64,000 nt of DNA, taken from the NCBI GenBank assembly GCA_963720545.1, contig OY970399.1, forward strand, positions 1,120,001 to 1,184,000, given 5' to 3'. The stretch's first letter is position 1, and each line of letters starts with the position of its first letter. The position numbers were made by a program, and so were the translations under genes. Source of the stretch: an uncultured Acidobacteriota bacterium (GTDB taxonomy: Bacteria; Acidobacteriota; Vicinamibacteria; Fen-336). Positions 5,282-41,262 of the stretch are shown piece by piece. The notes beneath the pieces were generated by a model, which had not been told where the DNA came from, ran no database searches, and saw only the letters and a program-made list of their open reading frames with translations.

Positions 5282-5794
5282 ATGTCGGGAACGTCGATCG
5301 TGCACAAGAGCTCGCGTTCGGGCCTGGCACTCTGTGCGGCACTCGCCTTTCTCCCGCCGCTACTGACGCGCCTCGTCATTGGCCAGGCGTTCTTCCTGAC
5401 CGGACGCGGCAAGATCCAGAACATCGACCAGATCGGGCAGTTCTTCGCGAGCCTCAGCATTCCCCTGCCCGAGGCGAACGCTTTCTTCATCTCGCGCCTC
5501 GAGTACTTCGGCGGCATGCTCCTCGTCATCGGCCTGCTCACGCGGCTGGTGGCGGCGCTGCTCAGCTGCACCATGATCGTCGCCATGATGACGGCCGACA
5601 AGCAAGACTTCCTCGGCGCCTTGCACATGACGAGCGACAAGGGGCTCACCGACGTGGTGCCGTTCGTCTACCTGCTGTTCCTCATCTGGCTCGTGATCAA
5701 GGGCCCCGGCGCCGTCAGCGTGGACGCGTTGCTGAAACGCTGGCTGTTCCGCGGCGAACACGCGCCCGGGCGAGCAGCAAGCCCGCACCAGTGA
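5282..5794 (+). CDS. DoxX family membrane protein
   Basis: FFLTGRGK, EYFGGMLLVIGLLTR, GPGAVSVD. Confidence 0.88.
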   Translation: MSGTSIVHKSSRSGLALCAALAFLPPLLTRLVIGQAFFLTGRGKIQNIDQIGQFFASLSIPLPEANAFFISRLEYFGGMLLVIGLLTRLVAALLSCTMIVAMMTADKQDFLGALHMTSDKGLTDVVPFVYLLFLIWLVIKGPGAVSVDALLKRWLFRGEHAPGRAASPHQ

Positions 5795-8153
5795 GTGCCG
5801 CGGCGGCGGCAGCGGCTGCCGTGAGGGTGGTCCATGAGACCGCTGTCGCAACCGGCCGCGTGCCTTCGCCGGTGAGGACGAACGCCGCCCAGTAGTGCGG
5901 GTGCGCGAGGCTCGTGCCGCTCGCCAGGAAGCGCAGCTTGGCGCGCTGCAGCGCCTGGTCGCGCGCGGCGCCGCGCTGCAAGTGGTAGTAGAACGACGCC
6001 ATGAAGTCGGCCGTCGGCTGGTCGGCCACACGCCACAGCGTCGTCACCGTGCTCGCCGCGCCGGCGGCGAGAAACGCGCGGCTGAAGCTCTGCACGCCTT
6101 CGCCGCGCAGGTAGGCTCCGCGCTCGGTGTCGCAGGCGCTCAGCACGGCTAGCTGCACATCGCCAAGCGGCAGCGAGTAGGCCTCCCGCAGGTAGAGGTA
6201 GTCGGCTGCGCCGCCCGCGACTTGCGGCGAGAACAGAATGCGCGACTGTTCGAGGGCGCTGGTGTCGGCGAACGCATGCGCCGCGATGTGCAGCAGCGGC
6301 GGCCGGCGCCGCTCTTCCTCGAGGTGCCGCTTGCGGTCGTCTGCGCCGAGGTGCGGGAGCACGCGTCCCGACAATTGCGCGGCGACGCGCGCGATCTCGT
6401 CGCGGGTGCCGGGAAGCACCGGATGCGGCGGCGGCGCCTGCGGATCGCCAAAAGCTTCCAGCACCGTTTGCCACGGCCAGCGCCGGCGCGGCGCGAGTGC
6501 AGCGCGGCGCTCGGTCGCGGAGGTGCCGGGCGCCAGCAAGGCCGCGGCGGTTGGCAGGTAACTGACGGGCGCGCGTTCGACCAACAGCCGGTCGGCCACG
6601 GGCAGCACCTCGAAGGGCACGAGTGCGACGGCGCCGTCGGGAACCACGATCACGTGGCGGATGCCGTCGAACCAGTCGCGCGGCGGCAGCAGCTGAGCGA
6701 GAGCCGCAGCATCGGCGCGCCACTCGCGGGCATCGCCGGCAGCGAGCGAGTCGATGAGCCGCTTCGCGGCTGCAACGTCGATCGTGAGCGGCAGGACCTG
6801 CACGCGTAGCCGCGTCACGGCCACCACCGCCGAACCGGCGGCGGAGTTCCAGTAGTCGAGAAGCAGCACTCCGTCGCCTAGGCGCGCCTGCACGTCCGCG
6901 AGCCGCACCCGCGCCGCCAGACCCAGCCGGTCGCGCCAGTCGCGCGAATGCGCCTGTTCCAGCACCGCGAACACCTCGCCCGCGTCTCCCGCGGGAAGGC
7001 GCGCCGCGAGCAGCGCGTCGTAGACGTCGCGCTTGTCGTTGAGGAAGTCCGGCCGCAGCGACGGCACCCGGAGCTCGCCACGGATCTTCTCGATGGTTTC
7101 GACCGCTTCACGAAACTGCGCCGCCGCGCCGTCACGCGTGCCTTCGGTACGGCCGAGGCCGTACAGCCCTTTCCACTCCTCTTCCGGTGTCTTCAGGCTG
7201 CGCGCCAGCGCGACGGCGGCCGTGAAATCGGTGCGCGCGCCCGGCGCATCGCCGCTGCGCAACAGCGCTTCGCCGCGGTAGAGGCGCGCGTGCAGCATTT
7301 CGCGCTGGTTGCCGGCCGTGGTCGCGGTCGCCAGCGCGGCGGCAAATGCCGCGGTGCCGAGGTCGGCGCGGCCGAGGTCCTGCGCGAGGACGATGCCGCG
7401 GTTCTTTATGGCGCCGAGCTCGCCGTCCACGTTGCGGTCGCGACGAAACAGTTGCAGCGCGCGGTCGTAGGTGGCGAGCGCTTTCTGCGGGTCGCCGAGG
7501 CGGCGATAGAGAGCCCCCTCGTTCACCAGCAGCTGCGCGGCTTCGCTCGGCGCGAGCGTGTCGGCATCCCTCGCCAGCTCTTCATAGACCTCGAGCGCTT
7601 CCTGGTACCGGCCGAGCCGCTGGTAGAGGCTCGCCTGGTTCGCGGCCAGGATGCGCCGGCGACGCGCGACCCACGTTGATCCGGCGCCGGGCGGCGACGC
7701 TTTCGTGAGCAGAAGCGCCTGCTGGTAGCGCGCGGCGGCATCGGTGTAGCGCCCGGTGAAGAAGTCGACATTGGCGCGGTTGCCCACCTCTTCGGCCAGG
7801 CCTTCGGTATCGCCGGCGCGCCGCGACGCGTCGATCGCGGCGTCGAGGCTCTGTTGCGCCAGCGCGTAGTCGCCGGCGTAGATCGAGGCGAGCCCGGCGC
7901 GGTTCCTGGCCTTGCCCACGGCGGCCGGGTCGCCGAGCGCCTCGTAGAGCGCCGCCGCTTCCTCGGCATGGCGGCGCGCCGCATTGTACTGGCCGAGATC
8001 AGCCTCACCGCCGGCGGCCTCCAGCAAGGCGTCGGCCCTCTGGCGATCGGCGGCCCGGCCGGCAGGCGCCGCGGGCTCGCCGATCGCCGCCGGAACCAGG
8101 CTAAAAAGCAGGACCAGGGCGGCCAGACTCGGGTCCAACAGGCCGCGGCGCAC
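5715..8153 (-). CDS. TPR + CHAT (caspase-like) domain protease with signal peptide and C-terminal TM helix
   Basis: N-terminal hydrophobic leader, TPRs, IVVPDGAVALVPFE, LHIAAHA (His), VLSACDT (Cys), HPHYWAAFVLTG. Confidence 0.9.
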   Translation of the reverse strand: MRRGLLDPSLAALVLLFSLVPAAIGEPAAPAGRAADRQRADALLEAAGGEADLGQYNAARRHAEEAAALYEALGDPAAVGKARNRAGLASIYAGDYALAQQSLDAAIDASRRAGDTEGLAEEVGNRANVDFFTGRYTDAAARYQQALLLTKASPPGAGSTWVARRRRILAANQASLYQRLGRYQEALEVYEELARDADTLAPSEAAQLLVNEGALYRRLGDPQKALATYDRALQLFRRDRNVDGELGAIKNRGIVLAQDLGRADLGTAAFAAALATATTAGNQREMLHARLYRGEALLRSGDAPGARTDFTAAVALARSLKTPEEEWKGLYGLGRTEGTRDGAAAQFREAVETIEKIRGELRVPSLRPDFLNDKRDVYDALLAARLPAGDAGEVFAVLEQAHSRDWRDRLGLAARVRLADVQARLGDGVLLLDYWNSAAGSAVVAVTRLRVQVLPLTIDVAAAKRLIDSLAAGDAREWRADAAALAQLLPPRDWFDGIRHVIVVPDGAVALVPFEVLPVADRLLVERAPVSYLPTAAALLAPGTSATERRAALAPRRRWPWQTVLEAFGDPQAPPPHPVLPGTRDEIARVAAQLSGRVLPHLGADDRKRHLEEERRRPPLLHIAAHAFADTSALEQSRILFSPQVAGGAADYLYLREAYSLPLGDVQLAVLSACDTERGAYLRGEGVQSFSRAFLAAGAASTVTTLWRVADQPTADFMASFYYHLQRGAARDQALQRAKLRFLASGTSLAHPHYWAAFVLTGEGTRPVATAVSWTTLTAAAAAAAALTGAGLLLARARVRRGTASVSATRPR

Positions 8154-8268
8154 GATACGGGATGGTACATCCGGGCTCGCCCGGATTTGTGTTCCGCAGC
8201 CGCCCCGCGCCGGGTCTTATTTTCCGGGCAAGGACCCCCAATCGAATGACCTCTATACAATCGAAGCC

Positions 8269-8862
8269 ATGGCGCTGCGCGACCTCACCGACGAGCAACT
8301 CGTGGCCGAGTGCCGTCTCGAGGGCTCTGCCCAACGGGAAGCCGCGAAGGACGAGCTGTTCTCGCGCCACTACGCGACCGTCGCGCGCTGGTGCCTGCGC
8401 ATGACGAGCGATCGCGAAGCCGCCGCCGACCTCGCCCAGGACGTGTTCCTGAAGGCGCACCGCTATCTCGATTCGTTCCGTGGCCAGTCGCGCTTCTCGA
8501 CGTGGCTCTACACCATCGCACGCAACGAAACCGCCGATCGCTTCAAGTCGATGCCGGCACCGGTCGAGAGCGAAGAGATCCTCGCCGACCTCGCGGACGA
8601 CGCGCCCGGCCCCGAGCAGCAGGCCGATATCGCCAGCCGCGGGCGACGGGTGCGCGAGTTCCTGGCGAGCACACTCGACGAGACCGAGCGCGCGGTGTTC
8701 GCGCTGCACTTCGGCGAGGACATGCCGCTGGCGGCCGTGACGCGGACGCTGGGCCTCGACAACCGCAGCGGCGCCAAGGCCTACCTCGTCAGCGCCCGGC
8801 GCAAGCTCGCCCGCGTGCTCGACCGTTCCCAGGTCGCTCTTGGGGCAAGGGAGGACGCGTGA
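8269..8862 (+). CDS. ECF RNA polymerase sigma factor
   Basis: DLAQDVFLKA...FRGQSRFSTWLYTIARN region 2; C-terminal HTH. Confidence 0.92.
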   Translation: MALRDLTDEQLVAECRLEGSAQREAAKDELFSRHYATVARWCLRMTSDREAAADLAQDVFLKAHRYLDSFRGQSRFSTWLYTIARNETADRFKSMPAPVESEEILADLADDAPGPEQQADIASRGRRVREFLASTLDETERAVFALHFGEDMPLAAVTRTLGLDNRSGAKAYLVSARRKLARVLDRSQVALGAREDA

Positions 8863-9584
8863 CCAACGAGCGCATAGCCGAGGGTCGGCTGGTGATGGGC
8901 GCGGCTCTGGGAACGACGCCCGATTGCATCGCGACCGCCCGCTTCGAGTCGCCGCTCGGTGCCGCGGATGCCGCGCACCTCGCGACCTGCGCGCATTGCC
9001 AGGCGGAGCTGGCGCTCTTCCGCAGCTTCCACGACGCTTCGCCGCTCGCGGCGGGCGAAGCTGCCGACGTCGAGTGGGTCACCGGCCGCCTGCGCCAGTC
9101 GGCGGCGCCGAACCGGGTCGCCGCTTTCCCCCCGGCGCGTACCACGCGGACAGGCGCCAGCCGCTTCCTGCCGGGCCTCGCCGCCGCTGCGGTGCTGCTG
9201 CTCGGCATCGGCTTTTTCGCGAGCCGGCGAGAACCGGAGCTGCGGCCGCTCGACGGCGGGTCCGTGGCTTATCGCTCGCTGCGCCTCGATCTCCTGTCGC
9301 CAAAAGGCGACCTCGACCGAGCGCCCGGCTCGCTGCAGTGGCACGCGGTTCCTGATGCGGCGCGCTACGACATCGAGGTCCTCGGCGTAGACCGGACGCC
9401 GCTCTGGCGCGGAGTGTCCGAGCAGGCGCAGGTGGCCTTGCCCGAGTCTCTCGTCGCCCAACTGTTGCCCGGACGAACCGTGCTGTGGCGTGTCGTCGCT
9501 TACGACGCGTCCGGCCGCACCCTGGCGGAATCGAACATGGAGCCGTTCCGCGTTGCGATGCGGCCGGCTGTCGGTAAGGATTGA
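8859..9584 (+). CDS. Putative anti-sigma factor (ZAS-like zinc motif, one TM, extracytoplasmic beta domain)
   Basis: HLATCAHC (HxxxCxxC), TM LAAAAVLLLGIGFF; GTGA coupling to the sigma gene. Confidence 0.75.
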   Translation: MTNERIAEGRLVMGAALGTTPDCIATARFESPLGAADAAHLATCAHCQAELALFRSFHDASPLAAGEAADVEWVTGRLRQSAAPNRVAAFPPARTTRTGASRFLPGLAAAAVLLLGIGFFASRREPELRPLDGGSVAYRSLRLDLLSPKGDLDRAPGSLQWHAVPDAARYDIEVLGVDRTPLWRGVSEQAQVALPESLVAQLLPGRTVLWRVVAYDASGRTLAESNMEPFRVAMRPAVGKD

Positions 9585-9588
9585 CGCC

Positions 9589-10695
9589 ATGATCCGGTCC
9601 ATCGCCCGCGCTCTTTTGGCCTCTTTCTTCGCAGTGGCTGGCGCCCTGCCGGCCGCGGCGCAGGCGCCGATAGAGCTGCGAGTCGAAGACGAGGTCGTGC
9701 CGCAGGGCGGCATCGTGCAGATGAAAGTGGGGGTCACGGAATCGAAGCCGATCTCGACCGGCCGCGGCCGCTTCCGCTCGTCGGCGCTACCGTTCCTTGC
9801 CGGCCTCGTGGTGCTGAGCCCCGCCAACGACACCTACGGTGCGGCGGTGCTCGATGGTACCAACCTGAGCGTCTCCGCGGTCTCGACCACATTCGCCTTC
9901 GGCACCGATACCGATTACCCGATCCTGGCCGCGGCGCTGCGGGTTCCCGAGACAATGGCCATCGGGACGGTGGTGCCGTTCGAGATGGAGCCCGGCTCGC
10001 TCGTGTTCCGCGATCCTTCCGGCGCCGTGTATCCGACGACCTTCGAGAACGGCGCCTTCACGGTCACCCGGCGCGCGCTCTCGATCGACGACGTGATCCC
10101 CGGCAGCGCCGACCTCCCCGCCGGCGCCACGGTCACCATCCTCGGCCGCGGCTTCCTGCCCTCGACGCGCATCCGCTTCAACGAAGTCGAGCTGGCCGAG
10201 ACTCGCTACATCAGCGCGCGCCGCATCGACGTGGTGCTGGGCGCGCCCGCGCACATGCACGGCATGCGCATCCGAGCCGAGAACGACGACAGCCCGCGGC
10301 TCGAGTACTTCTCGTACCAGCGAACGACGGTCCTTGGCGTGACGCAGACGCCTGGCTTGCAGAACGTCATCCCGCTGTTCGCGCACCAGCCGGTGCAGGA
10401 CGCGACCGTCGTGGTGGCGAAGCCGACCACCGCGACCACCGGGCTCGCCATCGAGAACCTGCAAGGCGCCGCGGTGCGCGTGACGATCGACCTGCTGCGG
10501 CCCTCGGGCGAGATCATCGCGACCACCCGCCTGCGTATCCCGCCGAGCCGCTACATCCTGCGCAACGTCACCGAGCTCTTTTCGGCCGCCGTGCCGCGAA
10601 ACGCGCGGCTGCGGGTGCGGGCCCCATCTCCCGTCGAGGTGATGGGCATCCGTGTGACCGCGGCCGGCGCCGTCGAACCCATCCTCGCCAACTGA
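9589..10695 (+). CDS. Secreted protein with IPT/TIG-like Ig domain
   Basis: Signal peptide ending AAAQA; IDDVIPGS...GATVTILGRGF...IRFN typical of IPT/TIG. Confidence 0.65.
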   Translation: MIRSIARALLASFFAVAGALPAAAQAPIELRVEDEVVPQGGIVQMKVGVTESKPISTGRGRFRSSALPFLAGLVVLSPANDTYGAAVLDGTNLSVSAVSTTFAFGTDTDYPILAAALRVPETMAIGTVVPFEMEPGSLVFRDPSGAVYPTTFENGAFTVTRRALSIDDVIPGSADLPAGATVTILGRGFLPSTRIRFNEVELAETRYISARRIDVVLGAPAHMHGMRIRAENDDSPRLEYFSYQRTTVLGVTQTPGLQNVIPLFAHQPVQDATVVVAKPTTATTGLAIENLQGAAVRVTIDLLRPSGEIIATTRLRIPPSRYILRNVTELFSAAVPRNARLRVRAPSPVEVMGIRVTAAGAVEPILAN

Positions 10696-10797
10696 TCCTC
10701 GCCTGCTGAAAGAAACCTGTTCCGCATCGCGCGGGCGCGGGGTCACACCCTTGGAACCACGGACCATATCGTCCGCACTGCTCTAAGGAGATTCACA

Positions 10798-11307
10798 ATG
10801 TTCACCCCTCACAAGCTGTTCGCACTGCTGGCGGTCGCCGGCTTCGTTTCGTTCAGCGCTGCCTGCGGCAGCGAGAACTCGTCCTCGCCGGTCGCCCCGA
10901 GCAACGTCGCCGCGGGCGATGATGCGAGCCTCGCGGTCGACGCCTCGCACGGCAGCGACGACAGCAACGTCGGCAGCTCCGACGACAACGCCAGCGGCGG
11001 CGGCGGCAACGCGATCCGCGTCCGCTGCGAGCGCCGCGGCAACCAGCGCTCGAAGATCTCGGTCGACGGCCGCAACCTCCGCTCCGGCACCTACACCGCC
11101 CGCGTCACCTCCGGCGCCAACACCGCCAGCGCGGCGCCGCAGCACACCATCGGCGACGAAGTCGAGTTCGACTTCGACAGCAACACCGGCGAGGGCGGCA
11201 CCCGCATCCCCCGCACCTTCATCCAGGGCAACAGCGTCACCGGCCAGATCCTCAACGCCGCCGGCAACGTGGTCCGCAACCAGACCGCCCGCTGCGAGGT
11301 TCGCTAG
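10798..11307 (+). CDS. Hypothetical lipoprotein
   Basis: TAAGGAG RBS, lipobox-like SAAC, Ser/Asp-rich linker, small Cys-flanked domain; strong codon bias. Confidence 0.75.
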   Translation: MFTPHKLFALLAVAGFVSFSAACGSENSSSPVAPSNVAAGDDASLAVDASHGSDDSNVGSSDDNASGGGGNAIRVRCERRGNQRSKISVDGRNLRSGTYTARVTSGANTASAAPQHTIGDEVEFDFDSNTGEGGTRIPRTFIQGNSVTGQILNAAGNVVRNQTARCEVR

Positions 11308-11333
11308 CCTTCATCGGCGAGTGGGCTGACGTC

Positions 11334-11380
11334 ATCGGCGGATGGGCTCCTTGCGAACCCATCCGCCGATTTTCCGTTTG
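11334..11380 (+). terminator. Intrinsic terminator-like hairpin
   Basis: ATCGGCGGATGGG / CCCATCCGCCGAT 13-bp stem followed by TTTCCGTTTG. Confidence 0.65.
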
Positions 11381-11430
11381 TCGGAGGCTCGTTGCCGCTC
11401 CCTCGGCGGCTCCGTTCCCTAGGAAGCTCG

Positions 11431-11565
11431 TCAACTGCGTCCGGACGCAGTCGAACTGAGTCCTGACGACTCAAGTGCGACTCGTTCCAGAACGGTGTCA
11501 CGTTGCGCAGCACAGACTCAACCGTGGCATCTCAGAAACGGTGGACTGCGTCCGGACGCAGTTGA
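11431..11565. repeat. 135-bp element bounded by 22-bp inverted repeats, each containing a perfect 18-bp palindrome (REPIN/MITE-like)
   Basis: ACTGCGTCCGGACGCAGT at 11434-11451 and 11545-11562. Confidence 0.75.
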
Positions 11566-11735
11566 AACTCAGTCGTCTTACAGCACGTTGACTGCTAGAC
11601 GACTGTGCCCGCGGGGCGGCGCGGTAAGTGTTGGGTGCGGCAAACGCAGCAACGGATGCAGGGAGATCCTTCGCGCCCGGGAACGGACCGAAGCGCTCAG
11701 GAAAACGGAACGAACCAGGAACAACGAACAACGAC

Positions 11736-11776
11736 AATCGACGGATTGGACTGCAAGGGCGGCCAATCCGTCGATT
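11736..11776 (-). terminator. purH terminator hairpin
   Basis: AATCGACGGATTGG / CCAATCCGTCGATT 14-bp stem abutting the purH stop; T-rich tail on the minus strand. Confidence 0.65.
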
Positions 11777-34402: not shown

Positions 34403-34477
34403 GGGCGCTTAACTCAGCGGTAGAGTGCCACCTTCACACGGTGGAAGTCGCAGGTTCAAACCCTGCAGCGCCCACCA
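34403..34477 (+). tRNA. tRNA-Val(CAC)
   Basis: GGGCGCT...CCACC-TTCACAC-GGTGG...GGTTCAAACC...AGCGCCCACCA cloverleaf. Confidence 0.96.
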
Positions 34478-41186: not shown

Positions 41187-41262
41187 GCCGGCGTAGCTCA
41201 GTTGGTAGAGCAGCTGATTCGTAATCAGCAGGTCATCGGTTCAAGTCCGATCGCCGGCTCCA
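41187..41262 (+). tRNA. tRNA-Thr(CGT)
   Basis: GCCGGCG...GCTGA-TTCGTAA-TCAGC...GGTTCAAGTCC...CGCCGGCTCCA. Confidence 0.96.

Follow-up and report, generated by a model that had tools for sequence, protein, structure and literature searches.

A TPR-CHAT protease predicted to be exported and membrane-anchored is encoded beside an ECF sigma/anti-sigma pair in Acidobacteriota and may be the site-1 protease of the anti-sigma

Introduction

The question raised by this locus is what a caspase-like TPR-CHAT protease cuts when its gene lies back to back with those of a sigma factor of the extracytoplasmic function (ECF) type and an anti-sigma factor bound to the membrane. The locus is located in a 64,000-nucleotide stretch, hereafter the window, of the genome of an uncultured Acidobacteriota bacterium (Vicinamibacteria, Fen-336; contig OY970399.1, positions 1,120,001 to 1,184,000). 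It comprises five genes, encoding the protease, the sigma factor, the anti-sigma, a secreted TIG-domain protein and a lipoprotein. An earlier note on the window, which had described this divergent layout, proposed that the protease cleaves the ectodomain of the anti-sigma. The five genes (window positions 5715–11307) were all found where the note had placed them, as was the 115-bp gap (8154–8268) between the divergent protease and sigma genes. Cleavage of the anti-sigma by the TPR-CHAT protein, acting as a site-1 protease, is the most likely mechanism suggested by the comparative analysis below, a reading that we place a little on the probable side; the best candidate site for the cut is in the juxtamembrane linker and not in the folded ectodomain.

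Results

Active site and predicted topology of the TPR-CHAT protein

By domain content and active site the 812-aa protein is a CHAT protease. Residues 485–763 matched the CHAT domain (PF12770) in Pfam with an E value of 5e-55 (187 bits, cut-off 24), several TPR families also matched, and the dyad that had been read from the sequence motifs is present as H626 (in LHIAAHA, from residue 621) and C674 (in LSACDT, from residue 671). The dyad is intact in the 132 aligned homologues and in all 29 CHAT domains linked to the anti-sigma family, and proteolytic activity is predicted from this conservation. The AlphaFold2 model of the TPR-CHAT protein had a mean pLDDT of 91.9. Its best Foldseek matches in the PDB were DdvA, followed by Csx29 and separase, and DdvA was also the top PDB match by sequence. 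The TPR superhelix (residues ~31–360) carries a conserved ladder of Asn residues (N84, N125, N172, N211 and N251, with Asn in 124–130 of the 132 homologues at each position), and by sequence its nearest natural TPR structures were the peptide-binding LGN/Pins repeats. Both features, by analogy, make a peptide ligand plausible.

A hydrophobic N-terminal stretch (residues 6–24, KD19 1.97) forms part of a predicted signal peptide (1–~25), and an Ala-rich C-terminal stretch (777–795, KD19 1.83), marginal in the window copy, is followed by the basic tail RARVRR. Both termini, already noticed in the earlier note, recur in relatives. Among 119 close homologues (those among the matches listed, with the self match removed), hydropathy revealed an N-terminal h-region in 104, a C-terminal transmembrane (TM) segment in 118 and both in 103, and at least two K/R residues followed the C-terminal segment in 117; two internal control windows scored as hydrophobic in 4 and 0 of the 119. 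By inspection, the homologues failing this check mostly resemble miscalled starts. The C-terminal segment was also present in 22 of 29 more distant CHAT domains linked to the anti-sigma family. The best reading of hydropathy and conservation is that the protein is exported and C-terminally anchored, with the CHAT domain predicted to lie next to the membrane.

The CHAT gene and a convergent DoxX gene overlap at their 3' ends by 80 nt (5715–5794), an overlap that spans part of the Ala-rich anchor and the tail. The CHAT gene of the window is the only intact one found in the host genome; a second CHAT domain (G000:C1:1983395-1984166) is split over two separate reading frames.

Linkage of the CHAT gene to the sigma and anti-sigma genes

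All linkage surveys were seeded on the anti-sigma alone, which had matches in 80 of 401 genomes of the phylum (a tally that includes the unpublished genome G083, which enters no other result). Sixty regions were fetched around the best non-self matches, several of them ending at contig ends; 59 gave a profile match to the anti-sigma, and a CHAT domain was found in 28 of these 59. In 16 close-family loci from GTDB, all of them from Acidobacteriota, the sigma gene was present in 16, the TIG gene in 14 and the CHAT gene in 13, of which one, at a contig end, comprised only the N-terminal part, and three were frameshifted. A set of 80 metagenome loci, including some near-duplicates, contained 65 sigma, 48 TIG and 44 CHAT genes, and CHAT was present in 11 of the 11 loci with at least 1.5 kb upstream and at least 2.5 kb downstream. 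The linkage persists through changes of gene order, since both divergent and convergent arrangements occur, and in the loci examined CHAT was never fused to the zinc domain; in the window the two are encoded by separate genes on opposite strands. Four genomes (G181, G401, G323 and G188) have a close-family locus without CHAT, yet each has one clear orthologue elsewhere (747, 712, 660 and 654 bits, respectively, against no more than 336 for the next match). The association on whose conservation the earlier note had made its proposal depend was therefore found in 13/16 GTDB loci and 11/11 well-flanked metagenome loci, and judged by gene content the four genes from CHAT to TIG are a genuine, conserved signalling cassette across Acidobacteriota.

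Additional CHAT copies were seen in two loci. In L096 two full CHAT genes, one with and one without the C-terminal anchor, flank a single sigma/anti-sigma pair, and L166 has a second, partial copy downstream (2397–2921).

The anti-sigma and its linker

The zinc motif of the anti-sigma is more extended than the HxxxCxxC previously noted, which forms part of a full CHCC set (C23-x16-H40-x3-C44-x2-C47) that is conserved in the alignment and predicted to bind zinc. The protein itself had no Pfam match; zf-HC2 matched 23 of 136 homologues, and the family comprises at least 5169 representatives (E up to 0.001). In the AlphaFold2 model, helices are followed by a TM segment (106–121 in the model, annotated as ~103–121), a low-confidence flexible linker (122–140) and a beta domain (141–232). 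Foldseek matched this domain to FN3 modules, so that the TM plus beta-domain architecture proposed before is retained, with the beta domain refined to FN3-like. DUF928, considered as an identity for the ectodomain, matched none of 136 members.

Arg139, at the border between the low-confidence linker and the first strand, is present in 150/150 aligned homologues. From its position and invariance it is a candidate P1 residue for site-1 cleavage. It gave no support as a CHAT-specific mark: Arg occupied this position in 31 of 41 CHAT-linked rows and in 32 of 35 unlinked ones.

Some family members depart from the usual architecture. In P0021 (444 aa) the anti-sigma profile matched only residues 208–438, a possible sigma fusion, whereas in P0086 (669 aa) it matched residues 9–254 and was followed by a C-terminal extension. 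Two very large proteins, P0036 and P0077, also carry the FN3-like domain, repeated 14 and 22 times, respectively.

Predicted contact between protease and anti-sigma

The CHAT/anti-sigma complex, whose modelling had been suggested in the earlier note, was predicted by folding CHAT residues 30–768 with anti-sigma residues 122–236. The prediction passed with an ipSAE of 0.46, against 0.00 for the best control; the runs agreed in at least 87% of contacts and the partner pLDDT was at least 80. Of 157 solved complexes 116 reached the pass mark, as did 2 of 215 mismatches, and passes at an ipSAE of 0.60 or less comprise only 18 solved complexes plus both passing mismatches. This result gives weak support to a complex. 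A homologue of RseP, the enzyme that a site-2 cut would require, is present in the genome above its cut-off.

Promoters and predicted regulon

The sigma factor matched TIGR02937 with 87.5 bits (cut-off 42.9). Of 27 homologous loci, 23 have a motif, TGTTCC-N17/18-GTC, upstream of the sigma gene. A matrix derived from these 23, with the host genome excluded, ranked the site at 8185 first (29.3 bits) and the site at 10713 second (24.3 bits) in the 4.09-Mb genome; only four genome sites reached 15 bits, and the maximum in the reversed genome was 18.9 bits. The second site falls within the region (10696–10797) where a sigma-type promoter had been foreseen. In the metagenome set a site was located within 260 nt of the sigma gene in 31 of 45 loci and within about 310 nt in 8 more. 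From its position the motif is probably read by the sigma of the module, and autoregulation is predicted from the site at 8185–8220. A third genome site (C1:2668159) was dropped because it is antisense inside a reading frame, and an exact-pattern search derived from the two window sites was discounted as circular.

In 57 of 72 homologous loci a TATAAT-like hexamer precedes the sigma start by 5–9 nt, an arrangement seen in none of 72 internal controls. It suggests a leaderless basal transcript; a scan for the full -35/-10 consensus upstream of the sigma gene gave no match.

Second motif sites commonly face a neighbouring gene in related loci, and most of the genes behind them begin with a signal-like stretch. 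Twenty-three of these genes were scanned: DUF5666 was found in five, a glycosyltransferase in two and a TonB-like barrel in one, several were propeller-like, and the remainder comprised one helix-turn-helix (HTH) protein, one response regulator and seven without a Pfam family. A family of secreted proteins of 150–180 aa, without a name, repeatedly follows the motif (L187:5542-6030, L188, L190, L198:10654-11109, L234 and L237).

In the window, the TIG match of the fourth gene was below the Pfam cut-off (17.5 against 20.9 bits) and above it in three homologues; the Atlas neighbours of this protein are Acidobacteriota clusters without a name. The lipoprotein carries a lipobox-like SAAC, and its gene a separate promoter site. 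No related locus fetched contained a homologue of it, which led to its rejection as a core member, and its assignment to the small cargo family was also rejected (profile similarity probability 8%). Its C-terminal domain of ~95 aa belongs to a family without a name that has two near-invariant Cys and an invariant acidic-aromatic strand (121–128). The predicted promoter at 10713–10748 is in line with the idea that the sigma induces the downstream secreted proteins, with the lipoprotein as variable cargo. The predicted regulon consists of secreted or surface proteins encoded close by, which at this locus are the TIG protein and the lipoprotein.

Organization of the locus

The coordinates of the features are collected in Table 1. 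The host genome is a single 4.09-Mb contig (94.8% complete), and the cassette is flanked by the DoxX gene and purH (Pfam). The GTG start of the anti-sigma gene, at 8859, overlaps the sigma stop, and 102 bp separate the TIG gene from the lipoprotein gene.

Table 1. Features of the locus in window coordinates.
Feature	Position	Strand	Basis
TPR-CHAT protease gene, 812 aa	5715..8153	-	Pfam, hydropathy, AlphaFold2, Foldseek, column counts
Catalytic His626 codon	6276..6278	-	His in 132/132 aligned homologues
Catalytic Cys674 codon	6132..6134	-	Cys in 132/132 aligned homologues
Predicted ECF sigma promoter	8185..8220	+	TGTTCC 8190-8195, GTCTTA 8214-8219; best matrix site in genome
TACAAT sigma70-type -10 element	8256..8261	+	7 nt 5' of sigma ATG
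ECF sigma factor, 197 aa	8269..8862	+	Pfam Sigma70_r2, NCBIfam TIGR02937
Anti-sigma, 241 aa	8859..9584	+	Alignment invariants, AlphaFold2, Foldseek FN3 matches
Linker Arg139 codon (YRS), candidate P1 residue	9273..9275	+	Arg in 150/150 aligned homologues; putative role
Secreted TIG-domain protein, 368 aa, conserved fourth gene	9589..10695	+	Homologues in related loci
Second predicted sigma-dependent promoter	10713..10748	+	TGTTCC 10718-10723, GTCACA 10742-10747; second-best matrix site
Predicted lipoprotein, 169 aa, variable cargo, predicted regulon member	10798..11307	+	184 homologues

The spacer between the lipoprotein gene and purH (11308–11775) is made up of palindromic repeats in a mosaic pattern, and dozens of further copies are spread over the genome. 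These repeats, which include a perfect 22-nt inverted pair, are REP-like and had no Rfam match. Two tRNA genes are located at 34403–34474 and 41187–41259, and the GC content of the window falls past about 40 kb.

Discussion

Proposed mechanism and points against it

We propose that the TPR-CHAT protein is an exported, C-terminally tethered site-1 protease dedicated to the neighbouring anti-sigma. In the resting state a low level of sigma would be made from the leaderless housekeeping promoter and, as known for the family, the CHCC zinc domain would keep it sequestered. The Asn-lined groove of the TPRs would take up a ligand, probably a peptide in extended form, and its binding would bring the His/Cys dyad into alignment, as Csx29 and separase suggest. 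The membrane-proximal CHAT domain would then cut the anti-sigma linker, the best candidate position being after Arg139, 18 residues above the TM segment, with loss of the FN3-like cap. RseP would next cut the TM segment and release the sigma, by analogy with DdvA and RseA, and the freed sigma would read TGTTCC-N17/18-GTC, so that expression of its own operon is amplified and secreted or surface proteins encoded close by are induced.

Several observations weigh against this proposal. In separase, D2151 binds the P1 Arg and corresponds to K670 of the Scalindua TPR-CHAT protein (PMC9729208). The equivalent position here is Ala715 (W+8; Ala in 110 of 132 homologues), a mapping that is indirect, through K670 plus the alignment, the separase row itself not being displayed. 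The acidic S1 residue of separase is therefore lacking by this mapping, and its Arg specificity would not be directly inherited. D711 was rejected as the D2151 equivalent because it sits at W+4 and not W+8; being invariant and one turn away, it possibly substitutes for D2151. The complex prediction resolved no interface. In DdvA of Myxococcus xanthus, the H862A and C907A mutants still repressed and no autoproteolysis was seen (PMC11506125).

The linkage also has gaps, and the related loci, being kin, do not count as independent samples. Genomes G232 (77% complete) and G387 (93% complete) gave no orthologous CHAT, and G151 has a CHAT of 712 bits but no anti-sigma match at 1e-5. Furthermore, 15 of the 31 regions without CHAT form one nested anti-sigma clade (FastTree support 0.86) in which the linker Arg is kept; 13 of the 15 lie beside holB/PSP1, and Pfam CHAT was not found in three genomes of this clade (G274, G430 and G362, 91–92% complete). 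The anti-sigma architecture can therefore occur in the absence of CHAT, and the role of the Arg may be structural. The members of this clade (L071, L073-L077, L080, L082-L086, L090, L097 and L098) mostly stand beside uvrA-holB-PSP1, and their zinc motif is often degenerate in the alignment.

Alternative explanations

The alternative that survives best, unlikely as we consider it, is that CHAT and anti-sigma share a pathway in which the anti-sigma is not the substrate. CHAT could cut another envelope protein, such as the TIG protein, and so make or destroy a ligand sensed by the FN3-like domain; or it could bind to the anti-sigma as a shield, Arg139 serving for docking or as a pseudo-substrate, while another protease makes the site-1 cut. 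The persistence of the Arg in the clade without CHAT, a predicted contact without a resolved interface, the lack of a resting phenotype in the DdvA catalytic mutants and a TIG linkage almost as tight as that of CHAT (14/16) are all compatible with such a pathway. However, in six loci (L235, L240, L245, L247, L255 and L257) the order is sigma, anti-sigma, CHAT and no TIG gene intervenes, so that CHAT and anti-sigma form the smaller core, and a pure shield would not need the dyad, which is never lost.

An anti-phage alarm that controls defence genes, as DdvA/DdvS does, is improbable, although DdvA is the closest structural relative and CHAT-sigma pairs are known in CRISPR (clustered regularly interspaced short palindromic repeats) and CBASS (cyclic oligonucleotide-based antiphage signalling system) loci. 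Cas1 was not found in the 94.8% complete host genome, which together with the recurrence of the linkage across the phylum bears out the CRISPR-independent module of the earlier note. Only two credible promoter sites exist in the genome, both at the module locus. When 35 locus and cargo proteins were compared with PADLOC, only generic TPR and generic HTH models matched, and no specific defence gene was found among them. By remodelling the surface, the module could still protect indirectly against phage. Three clusters of repeats spaced in a CRISPR-like way matched the dispersed palindromic repeats and were not taken as CRISPR.

We give marginally less credence still to the view that CHAT is an output, linked by shared function only, that matures or turns over sigma-induced secreted proteins. 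Most of the predicted regulon does consist of secreted proteins that possibly need processing, but no matrix site of at least 15 bits is aimed at the CHAT gene in the host genome, and CHAT stays while the cargo genes vary by locus. Finally, CHAT is very improbably an unrelated neighbour or a cytoplasmic protein: CHAT genes are frequent in the phylum (match in 45 of 61 genomes), the anchor of the window copy is marginal and topology was read from hydropathy, but ten CHAT genes per 5 Mb give a ~3% chance per 14-kb region, against the 13/16 and 11/11 observed, and both hydrophobic termini are conserved.

Significance

More broadly, and as a tentative proposal that we hold to be possible but doubtful, Acidobacteriota may use a new class of site-1 enzyme, membrane-anchored, peptide-gated and separase-like, which would cut after the linker Arg and drive a small regulon of surface proteins; DdvA would then be the fused, defence-adapted form of a wider system acting in trans. 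If so, signalling by the caspase family would be routinely active outside the bacterial cytoplasm. Whether a periplasmic CHAT domain serves as the site-1 protease of an anti-sigma was left open in the DdvA paper (PMC11506125), since enzyme and substrate are there a single chain and the signal is unknown. The module described here has separate genes, a candidate cut site, a predicted reporter promoter and hundreds of natural variants, which makes the question testable in trans, in E. coli or in vitro. An answer would also assign a function to the unannotated exported TPR-CHAT proteins, which are a common class, and a first regulon to an ECF family from soil bacteria that are abundant and for the most part uncultured.

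Comparison with known systems

The predicted logic of the module, with a site-1 cut outside, a site-2 cut in the membrane and sigma release, is that of DegS/RseP with RseA and of PrsW/RasP with RsiW. PrsW and RasP act on the anti-sigma RsiW, which also has a CHCC zinc domain. The proposed site-1 enzyme differs from the PDZ serine protease and from PrsW in being a cysteine protease of clan CD that has a TPR sensor. The action of DegS and RseP on RseA is summarised in PMC10028731.

A conserved TPR-CHAT gene next to an ECF sigma gene, with proteolytic regulation proposed, has been described for ECF54 (PMC7826278, PMC8999054), the only group for which CHAT is mentioned in the covered part of the ECF supplement (PMC7826278). 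ECF54 is restricted to Actinobacteria, has no putative anti-sigma and a predicted promoter GTATCAG/CTCC, whereas the loci analysed here are from Acidobacteriota, encode a TM anti-sigma and carry TGTTCC/GTC.

Csx29 and Csx30, taken as the model in the earlier note, remain a precedent for a CHAT protease acting in trans, but the closer DdvA/DdvS system had been missed. In the model of the authors, cleavage of Csx30 by Csx29 relieves CASP-sigma (PMC10028731). Craspase thus resembles the module in having a TPR-gated CHAT that acts in trans on the inhibitor of an ECF-like sigma (PMC10028731, PMC9729208). It differs in its cytoplasmic location, its binding to Cas7-11 and its activation by target RNA, and Csx30 is not a protein with a zinc-binding anti-sigma domain and a TM segment. 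The module is flanked by DoxX and purH and predicted to be non-cytoplasmic; Cas1 was not found, and Cas7-11 was not searched genome-wide.

DdvA/DdvS is the nearest known system, and the module works most like it rather than like Csx29/Csx30. Both consist of an ECF sigma, a single-pass CHCC anti-sigma (zinc ligands C6/H28/C32/C35 in DdvA) and a TPR-CHAT with a His/Cys dyad that is extracytoplasmic, in the module by prediction. For DdvA, a site-1 cut in the linker above the TM segment followed by RseP has been proposed; site-1 autoproteolysis is unproven, and the step demonstrated is that of RseP, which has truncated DdvA as a substrate (PMC11506125). The CHCC domain, the single TM segment and the adjacent sigma gene all recur here, and RseP-dependent degradation is predicted. 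However, DdvA is one 991-aa polypeptide, whereas in the module the protease stands apart as a protein with a predicted signal peptide and a predicted C-terminal anchor, and the anti-sigma, unlike DdvA, ends in an FN3-like domain. DdvS controls CBASS/CRISPR, and the sigma of the module is predicted to control secreted proteins. Since it lacks the fusion and is not predicted to control a defence island, the module is not a member of the DdvA type, and in the covered part of PMC11506125 Myxococcota and one Comamonas are the only carriers reported for DdvA-like fusions. The literature searched, from which most subscription papers were missing, gave no description of the split and anchored form. 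The CHAT/anti-sigma pair of Acidobacteriota thus appears to be an undescribed, split version of DdvA, apparently the sole protease-bearing anti-sigma known.

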